Assembly: GCA_951406725.2 (NCBI GenBank)
Contig: OX597817.1
Coordinates: 19,158,001 to 19,222,000 of the forward strand
Reading direction: 5' to 3'
Length of the DNA: 64,000 nt
Source: Octopus vulgaris
Lineage: Eukaryota
Below the pieces are notes generated by a model. It was not told where the DNA came from. It searched no databases and was given only the letters and a program-made list of their open reading frames with translations. Shown here in pieces: positions 25,527-27,519 of the stretch. The number at the start of each line of letters is the position of its first letter. The stretch's first letter is position 1. Made by a program: the position numbers and the translations under genes.

Positions 25527-25917
25527 AGATAAATAGATAGATATGTAAAGTAAAATGAACTTAGATATCAAATTGCAAGGAACATATTCTTAACCTAAAC
25601 TGCCTACATTGTTGGTTATTCCCCCTTATCATACTTGGCCTCACAGAGACATCCCTGCTGTATTCTTGGATACTATTTTGTTTGTAAAATTACTTCTCAT
25701 ATGATGATTACGGTCTTTTATATTGAATAAAAGGTTTTTATTCTTCTATCAAAATGTTACGTAAGAAACATGTATTACATAACAATTATCCAACATATGT
25801 TATTATTGATTTTGATTATATATATATATATATGTATAAGGGTGGAAAGGAACACACGAGTTGATATATATGAAAAAACAAGTCAAAAATAGAAAATGCT
25901 AAGATAATTTTATAGTG

Positions 25918-25970
25918 AATCTTTCAGTACCGGTTTCGGTCATTTTGAGACCTTTTCAACTGTAACGATT
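25918..25970 (-). ncRNA. Minimal hammerhead ribozyme motif, U3:A8 variant (left arm)
   Basis: Exact reverse complement of 26609-26661. Confidence 0.7.
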
Positions 25971-26608
25971 AAATAATTAAATTTAGAAAAATTAGAAGAA
26001 AAGTTTTTTTTAAAAGAATATTTCTATAGTAGTGTTCAGATGTAAGTGGCATTCTGCCTTTCTCTGACTCCCTTGTTTGCACTTGTGTGTTCGAGGTCGT
26101 TGTGAGTTCTTGGTAGGGTAGGTGAAGAAGAAGGCTGATGTGGAGAGGGGCTGGGGAAATCTGGGAATGCCTTGATGGTCGTATTTTGAATGGTCAGTGG
26201 CGGACAACTTCTTCTTCTTCTTCTTCTTCATCATCATCATCATCAACATCGTCATCTTCTTCTTCTTCTTCTTCTACTTCTCCACCTTCTACTCCTTAAC
26301 CTTGTCACTAATGTCTTTCAATATAACGCCTACGCAAATTCCATAAACAATTCCTGAATTGAACTGCGACTGTTGTCCGCCACTGACCATTCAAAATACG
26401 ACCATCAAGGCATTCCAAGATTTCCCCACCCCCTCTCCACATCAGCCTTCTTCTTCACCTACCCTACCAAGAACTCACAACGACCTCGAACACACAAGTG
26501 CAAACAAGGGAGTCAGAGAAAAGCAGAATGCCACTTACATCTGAACACTACTATAGAAATATTCTTTTAAAAAAACTTTTCTTCTAATTTTTCTAAATTT
26601 AATTATTT

Positions 26609-26661
26609 AATCGTTACAGTTGAAAAGGTCTCAAAATGACCGAAACCGGTACTGAAAGATT
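26609..26661 (+). ncRNA. Minimal hammerhead ribozyme motif, U3:A8 variant (right arm)
   Basis: AATC-GTTA-CAG-TTGAAAA-GGTC-tcaaaat-GACC-GAAA-CCGG-TA-CTG-AAA-GATT. Stem I CAG/CTG extended by AATC/GATT, stem II GGTC/GACC, palindromic stem III ACCGGT, cleavage triplet GUA. Confidence 0.7.
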
Positions 26662-26703
26662 CACTATAAAATTATCTTAGCATTTTCTATTTTTGACTTG
26701 TTT

Positions 26704-26751
<48 letters not shown>

Positions 26752-27073: not shown

Positions 27074-27230
27074 AGTGGCTGTGTGGTAAGTAGCTTGCTA
27101 ACCAACCACATGGTTCCGGGTTCAGTCCCACTGCGTGGCGTCTTGGGCAAGTGTCTTCTGCTATAGCCCCGGGCCGACCAATGCCTTGTGAGTGGATTTG
27201 GTACACGGTAACTGAAAGAAGCGTGTCGTA

Positions 27231-27286
<56 letters not shown>

Positions 27287-27519
27287 TGTGTGTGTATATG
27301 TTTGTGTGTCTGTGTTTGTTCCCCTAGCATTGCTTGACAACCGATGCTGGTGTGTTTACGTCCCCGTCACTTAGCGGTTCGGCGAAAGAGACCGATAGAA
27401 TAAGTACTGGGCTTACTTACAAAGAATAAGTCCCGGGGTCGATTTGCTCGACTAATGGCGGTGCTCCAGCATGGCCGCAGTCAAATGACTGAAACAAGTA
27501 AAAGAGTAAAAAGAGAGAG

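Follow-up and report, generated by a model that had tools for sequence, protein, structure and literature searches.

Structure of the locus

The window, by which we mean the whole 64,000-nt stretch of Octopus vulgaris DNA that was analysed, contains two inverted arms at 25864-26208 (reverse strand) and 26372-26715 (forward strand), which are three substitutions and one 1-nt indel apart. The 163 nt separating the arms are further sense-orientation sequence of the same Penelope-like element, and the left arm continues into a short AT tract and then a 30-nt element-encoded tail (25834-25863), which is found in many other copies (1,156 exact matches of the tail junction genome-wide). In the window copy, a sense 3' end of about 508 nt follows an inverted stretch made up of 345 nt and the tail. 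The start of the right arm shows one difference in 133 nt from the copy L002, and the sequence of the sense copy also sits 3' of the ORF in the copy L031. No coding sequence, either for the reverse transcriptase (RT) or for GIY-YIG, was found in the window copy, which is 5'-truncated. The features, with the evidence for each in parentheses, are as follows.

25817..25833, no strand: (TA)n target microsatellite, left flank (sequence)
25834..25863, reverse strand: 30-nt Penelope 'tail', on the left arm only; leads into ORF1 in the tandem copy L055 (genome-wide junction matches)
25864..26208, reverse strand: inverted, 5'-truncated second copy, 345 nt of the element 3' end (arm comparison)
25925..25962, reverse strand: left-arm putative minimal type I hammerhead with U3:A8, expected to be cut between 25928 and 25927 (Rfam and descriptor)
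26208..26715, forward strand: 5'-truncated copy in sense orientation, about 508 nt long, made up of the 3' UTR microsatellite and the pLTR; tail-less (matches to L002 and L031)
26208: 1-nt overlap of the left arm and the sense copy
26617..26654, forward strand: right-arm putative minimal type I hammerhead, U3:A8; predicted cut after A26651 (descriptor, Rfam, chimeric joins in other copies)
26617-19 with 26652-54, forward strand: stem I of the right-arm hammerhead
26620-26, forward strand: core of the right-arm hammerhead
26627-30 with 26638-41, forward strand: stem II of the right-arm hammerhead, 4 bp
26645-50, forward strand: palindromic stem III of the right-arm hammerhead
26708..26748, forward strand: AT tract, of which the first ~8 nt are element-encoded (putative proximal RT start) and the remainder is (TA)n target

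An earlier note on this DNA had described two nearly identical arms, each ending in TA repeats. The arms are as described, with their four differences, whereas the TA ending does not hold for the left arm, where the 30-nt tail intervenes. The recent age that it proposed for the insertion was borne out. To the right of the element lie two SINE-like repeats flanked by microsatellites (27074-27228 and 27300-27510), which we take to be common octopus SINEs. A 14-codon upstream ORF (26632-26682) begins in loop II of the right-arm hammerhead; in the anole element, according to the available text, the main ORF begins at stem II.

The Penelope-like family

The window arm represents the 3' end of a family that is abundant in the 2.8-Gb genome. 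A first look gave 2,394 candidates, of which the best 40 have 97-100% identity; the 42-nt hammerhead is present in 1,720 exact copies, and the 30 nt directly after the predicted cut have 2,608 matches. Upstream of the same 3' end, the Pfam domains RVT_1 and GIY-YIG score above cut-off in the fragments L031 and L032, and the proposed Penelope origin and its linkage to a Penelope RT/GIY-YIG ORF were thus confirmed. In P0001, RVT_1 passes and GIY-YIG reaches 21.1 against a cut-off of 22.6; its nuclease is a C-terminal GIY-YIG preceded by a CX2-5CxxC linker, together with a CCHH motif. The pattern formed by the linker and two internal cysteines matches 79 of the best 120 homologues. The element is about 4.3 kb long, and in the partial tandem copy L055 the pLTR passes through the tail into ORF1.

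By the motif definitions of PMC8557442 (here and below, published systems are compared as described in the available text of the papers), the family would be classed as Neptune-type, an assignment made by motifs and not by tree. It has in common with the Neptune-type elements of that paper the C-terminal GIY-YIG, the CX2-5CxxC linker, CCHH and the (TA)n bias. The Hydra clade, which lacks CCHH and has elements below 3 kb, was ruled out by the CCHH motif and the element length, and the Penelope/Poseidon and Naiad clades by the linker Zn-finger and the C-terminal position of the endonuclease (EN). A non-LTR retrozyme or a MITE-like fixed non-coding unit was also ruled out, because the arms vary freely in length and junction and extend into the ORF. 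A search of the supplement of PMC8557442 with terms and two short motifs did not find the family. Most hallmarks of EN+ Penelope-like elements were found, namely RT with a C-terminal GIY-YIG, a hammerhead in the pLTR, 5' truncation, a partial tandem, an inverted copy and an optional tail. The window locus is almost certainly an insertion of a young protein-coding Penelope-like family, so that the supposed non-coding element in its own right is instead a truncated copy of a coding family.

The full-length copies have two overlapping ORFs in all ten distinct loci covering the site (L055, L053, L031, L032, L037, L047, L048, L070, L087 and L109), as in the following examples.

L055:3657-4886, reverse strand: overlapping ORFs
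L053:5112-7463, forward strand: overlapping ORFs

ORF1, which has 410 aa in L055 and no Pfam match, stops 10 codons past the heptamer T TTT TTA; the RT-EN frame, in -1, has no Met close to where it opens. The heptamer is presumably a slippery heptamer of the HIV-1 type; a stimulatory hairpin was not found after it. The best 120 homologues have at most 803 aa, and the top ones start at the ORF2 start. The overlap reflects either a -1 ribosomal frameshift or a retained intron. Adineta Pen2a, an EN+ Penelope-like element, has one ORF in contrast to the two seen here, and the departure from a single ORF makes the family less canonical without making it less a Penelope-like element. According to the legend of Fig. 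1 in PMC8557442, some types of Penelope-like elements may have a frameshift-separated ORF1.

Paired arms and the one-tail rule

Surroundings were retrieved for the first 100 listed of the 1,720 exact hammerheads, and 46 of these 100 lie in divergent pairs within about 5 kb. The palindrome is accordingly a routine insertion product; an inverted pLTR with a 5'-truncated copy is a known Penelope layout (PMC3846280, PMC8557442), and one-sided tails are also in print (PMC3846280). Exactly one arm was tailed in all 38 divergent pairs, 32 of which had been selected by their hammerhead alone, whether tailed or not (L042, whose left end was missed by the end query and does carry a tail, stands outside the 38). 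When pairs were anchored on the tail, the partner was tail-less in 23 of 24, the exception, L137, having a third, outer, tail-less end, and all 28 of an additional set of records, which contribute about 21 more insertions, follow the rule. The tail is bounded on both sides by AU tracts, which match the (TA)n target. In L053 (3093-3154), two palindromic insertions adjoin, one of which seems to have entered the TA tract that ends the other.

The two arms of a pair diverge by 1.0% (n = 32) versus 4.0% between loci, and 20 diagnostic sites gave 10 discordant calls between paired arms against about 184 expected. Private variants common to both arms of one pair numbered seven in 67 pairs and had no A-to-G bias, so that RNA editing is not a mark of single templates. 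The 67 pairs vary among themselves in arm length and junction; among the 58 simple ones, 30 have the shorter arm tailed, 12 the longer, and in 16 the two arms are of equal length (within 10%). One-off chimeric junctions are present in both arms of two palindromes, L192/L193 and L199/L200. In the window copy, a rare allele at 26417 is common to the right arm and L002 and missing from the left arm.

Taken as a whole, the observations are very probably best explained by a Penelope-like insertion with two back-to-back 3' ends, in which both strands were primed and the hammerhead cuts. The GIY-YIG nuclease would nick both strands of (TA)n; one nicked 3' end would prime at the proximal AU tract and give the tail-less arm (the right arm here), and the other would prime at the distal AU tract and give the tailed arm (the left arm here). 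The start sites are likely AU-rich, about 40 nt apart and on the same RNA. Each cDNA would terminate independently, and both would then be joined head to head. Among the ends examined along with the 38 pairs, 45 are unpaired (12 tailed and 33 tail-less), so that double priming is not obligatory.

The one-tail rule and the shared subfamily alleles point to one template primed twice, and the one-off chimeric junctions in both arms of two palindromes argue that the two strands, priming at two sites, most likely did so on one RNA. We rather favour this origin of both arms from one RNA. The rare allele, common to the right arm and L002 and absent from the left arm, stands against it and fits two sister RNAs better. 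Such an origin, from two RNA molecules of one source locus handled by a protein dimer whose subunits use different start sites, would also be in keeping with the independent truncation of the arms and with the dimer predicted for the anole protein (PMC11167929). However, two free RNAs offer no simple reason for exactly one tail, in 16 of the 58 pairs the arm lengths agree to within 10%, and ligation chimeras that occur only once would have to enter both arms of two palindromes; the two-RNA origin thus appears unlikely, though worth keeping in mind. Gene conversion between the arms could be equalising them.

A model proposed in PMC3846280, in which a single cDNA or antisense template primes itself or is copied by fold-back, possibly with gene conversion afterwards, would explain why paired arms have common alleles and why some junctions are perfect palindromes or have hairpin inserts (L119, L122 and L046). 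Simple fold-back of one cDNA, however, cannot produce pairs in which the tail arm is so often shorter, longer or equal, and in 30 of 58 pairs, as at the window locus, the tail is on the shorter arm and the longer arm is tail-less. We regard fold-back copying as improbable and retain priming of both strands at two sites, preferably on one RNA.

Two published systems come close to this layout. Adineta Pen2a has in common with the octopus family a 5'-truncated copy with an inverted 5'-truncated copy in front, a 30-40 nt tail at one end, a pLTR hammerhead and a (TA)n target (PMC3846280; PMC8557442), whereas the one-sided tail is described as optional or frequent there and near-obligate within the pairs here. 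Poseidon_Ac of the green anole likewise has two RT start sites bounding the tail and an AT-rich target cut on both strands (PMC11167929), and in vitro both target strands are cut and extended. Its RT starts at RNA non-homologous to the target, whereas the putative starts here are AU tracts matching (TA)n.

The hammerhead and its conservation

A descriptor permitting C3:G8, U3:A8 or U3:G8 gave two matches in the window, with U3 at 26620 (forward strand) and 25959 (reverse strand), one in each arm, in agreement with the minimal U3:A8 hammerheads reported there earlier. In each, the core is UUGAAAA, stem I has 3 bp, stem II has 4 bp and stem III is palindromic. Rfam HH9 matches both arms weakly (22.9 bits, E = 0.026), below its gathering score of 52. 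The 3:8 pair, G5, A6, A9, G12, A13, A14, the three stems and the palindromic stem III are all present, as expected for a minimal type I hammerhead, and two copies are computed to co-fold via stem III.

In 62 tail-anchored arms, U3:A8 is kept in 60, G5 in 62, G12 in 60 and A17 in 62. U3:A8 is thus fixed in the family, so that the covariation of positions 3 and 8 is relative to other families and not inside this one. Among tail-chosen arms (n = 58), shared variants occupy 2 of 38 hammerhead columns versus 27 of 116 flank columns (P = 0.015), and private changes are about equally frequent inside and outside the hammerhead; this pattern is as expected if source elements are under selection and decay follows insertion. 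Both variable hammerhead columns are the closing pair of stem II (G-C in 41, G-U in 10 and A-U in 8 of the 62 arms), although CpG decay could lie behind the G-U pairs. The suggested check of stem and core conservation, made here on the tail-anchored arms, favours the ribozyme, in that stem II covaries and the hammerhead columns are less variable than the flanks.

The U3-A8 core, and pairs of hammerheads on opposite strands 100-700 bp apart, have been described before (PMC4209133). Since that core was already searched for in the same paper, the earlier statement that searches with CUGANGA would overlook it was too strong. Cercyon of Schistosoma (PMC4209133) has in common with the octopus family the U3-A8 core, a short stem I, a palindromic stem III and the opposite-strand pairs, with a stem II of 7-8 bp in place of the 4 bp seen here; Poseidon_Ac has a C3:G8 core, unlike the octopus family.

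Chimeric copies at the predicted cut

We inspected all 51 records with a base other than A before C26652, together with 30 of 42 and 30 of 36 records for the neighbouring bases as controls. L189, with a mutated hammerhead, and L191, an edited copy, were reclassed by eye from truncated to intact, as was L248 in the control set. A start exactly at C26652 was found in 25 of 51 records, versus 7 of 30 (P = 0.03) and 10 of 30 (P = 0.25) at the neighbouring bases; taken by itself, this enrichment of 5' ends is modest. By contrast, a U6 or foreign-hammerhead partner adjoins C26652 in 7 of 51 records (six insertions) versus 0 of 60 controls (P = 0.003). Two insertions have U6 (67.1 and 55.5 bits in Rfam) with its 3' terminus at the base adjoining C26652, and four have the 5' half of some other hammerhead joined there, which stops at the GUC of that hammerhead. 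The hammerhead donors are multi-copy repeats whose native continuations differ and re-form their own stem I; the donor of L184 was matched at only about 81%, and one donor join has 1 nt of microhomology. Three further partners at C26652 are SINE-like by sequence features and presumably represent SINE RNAs. Small indels at the cut occur in 7 of 16 records versus 0 of 12 one base further (P = 0.01).

Both U6 RNA and hammerhead 5' products end in a 2',3'-cyclic phosphate (PMC6789731, PMC7229834), and RtcB ligates U6>p to 5'-OH RNA (PMC6789731). As the U6 and hammerhead partners end at their own cyclic-phosphate ends and are absent from the 60 controls, the simplest reading is cleavage, ligation and retrotransposition. 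From these genomic chimeras we consider it highly probable that the hammerhead cleaves after A26651 in vivo in the germ line, and the joins exactly at C26652 support the cut site predicted in the earlier note. The hammerhead likely cuts a small share of the element RNAs, probably as a stem III dimer or with the help of protein, and the 5'-OH product is likely ligated by an RtcB-type ligase to RNAs bearing 2',3'-cyclic phosphate ends and occasionally retrotransposed.

The fusions could also have arisen by template switches of the RT at a structural pause, since the adjoining stem could stall it, and some joins at C26652 are to target DNA, to the opposite arm or, in L202, to a SINE RNA with microhomology. 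Template switching is nevertheless a poor candidate, because six partners end exactly at their own cyclic-phosphate ends (the U6 3' terminus or the donor GUC) and such partners were seen in none of 60 records one base to either side. The preferred reading of cleavage and ligation concerns rare events, with six insertions among about 2,600 matches. The reciprocal fusion, of the 5' half of this hammerhead with a foreign 3' RNA, was found in 0 of 16 records; one foreign join occurred in the reciprocal control set (L359), which begins with C and may be a chance match. The family was found after the U6 3' end in none of the first 30 of 233 U6 3' ends genome-wide; most of these 30 are U6 retrocopies directly followed by SINE-like sequence, or U6 genes. 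A tandem array of U6 genes, about 1.1 kb apart, was seen in L295-L301 (within L285-L314).

Two other abundant hammerhead repeat families (L316-L324 and L326-L334) mostly have C for U at core position 4. Cut ends of these families are joined to the Penelope family in L283 and L192, which suggests that variant cores with C at position 4 may also cut. A tandem repeat of about 357 bp with a hammerhead, retrozyme-like, adjoins a family copy in L007 (328-372 and 685-729), and it matches the donor fused in L275 at 93-96%.

These copies resemble the U6/LINE-1 chimeras made by RtcB (PMC6789731) and retrozyme ligation (PMC7229834) in that an RNA with a cyclic phosphate and a 5'-OH retroelement RNA are joined and retrotransposed. 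Here, in distinction, the 5'-OH lies at a fixed ribozyme cut and the partners include the cut ends of other hammerhead families. PMC4209133 states that in vivo evidence is absent, and the octopus chimeras give such evidence indirectly. In the anole system, insertion in vitro did not depend on cleavage, and RNA ends did not map to the cut (PMC11167929).

Double-stranded RNA, editing and transcription

A single hairpin predicted from both arms has an energy of -610 kcal/mol (z = -63 against 20 shuffles). One family copy, L191 (G000:C6, near 110.675 Mb), differs from its nearest natural copy by 13 substitutions over 130 nt, all of them A-to-G, and it is likely an ADAR-edited element RNA written back into DNA. 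It was the only hyper-edited copy among 166 arms screened, so that the suggested action of ADAR on element dsRNA holds for the family in this one copy. The statement that a transcript from either strand carries the antisense copy would, by the layout, hold for read-through from outside and not for outward transcripts starting inside an arm. Arm starts lie 200-259 nt from the end in 58 of 167 arms, a count that subfamily boundaries could inflate, and they may mark a start site in the pLTR; transcripts starting there read outward and would therefore be without the antisense arm. Contigs of presumed-RNA runs, which cannot show ends, strand or editing, had no canonical splice joint, piled ends or indel at the ORF overlap when compared with L055. 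The segment 26575-26619 of the window, ending at stem I, resembles a 3' splice site with a branch-like motif, a pyrimidine tract and CAG; in D. virilis an intron ends at helix I (PMC4209133).

One might argue for a dedicated palindromic element without coding capacity, or for a host-selected dsRNA gene, from the lack of coding sequence in the window copy, from the 345-bp duplex that a read-through transcript would give and from the hyper-edited family copy, yet the variation of arm lengths and junctions over 67 pairs means that the palindrome is not propagated as a unit. An assembly fold-back artefact, in turn, was rejected on the four arm differences, the one-sided tail and the family-wide rule, none of which it would lead one to expect. 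We hold all of these explanations to be very improbable, and return to the insertion of a truncated Penelope-like copy.

Implications

Taken alone, the window locus is an ordinary insertion of known layout. The family, however, bears on two open questions, namely the origin of tandem and inverted Penelope insertions and the in vivo cutting by weak minimal hammerheads (PMC8557442, PMC4209133, PMC11167929). In the literature searched, which left out most subscription papers, we found no Penelope-like twin priming with inverted copies, no hammerhead-Penelope-U6 snRNA chimeras and no Penelope-like ribosomal frameshift with ORF1. We give about an even chance to the joint picture of twin-site priming of one RNA, germ-line cutting by the U3:A8 hammerhead that feeds a shared RtcB pool, and RT made by a possible -1 frameshift.

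The twin-site reaction, if true, would account at a single stroke for the inverted pLTR and for the tail on one side, and the near-absolute one-tail rule with the shared alleles translates into a sharp prediction in the available in vitro system. Chimeric copies joined at the cut provide a genome-only read-out of ribozyme activity, non-canonical cores included, and the hammerhead-hammerhead fusions show a possible origin of retrozyme- and SINE-like composites. If a shared RtcB pool exists, the ends of hammerhead families, U6 and SINE RNAs would be swapped and rewritten into DNA, giving new composite retroelements.
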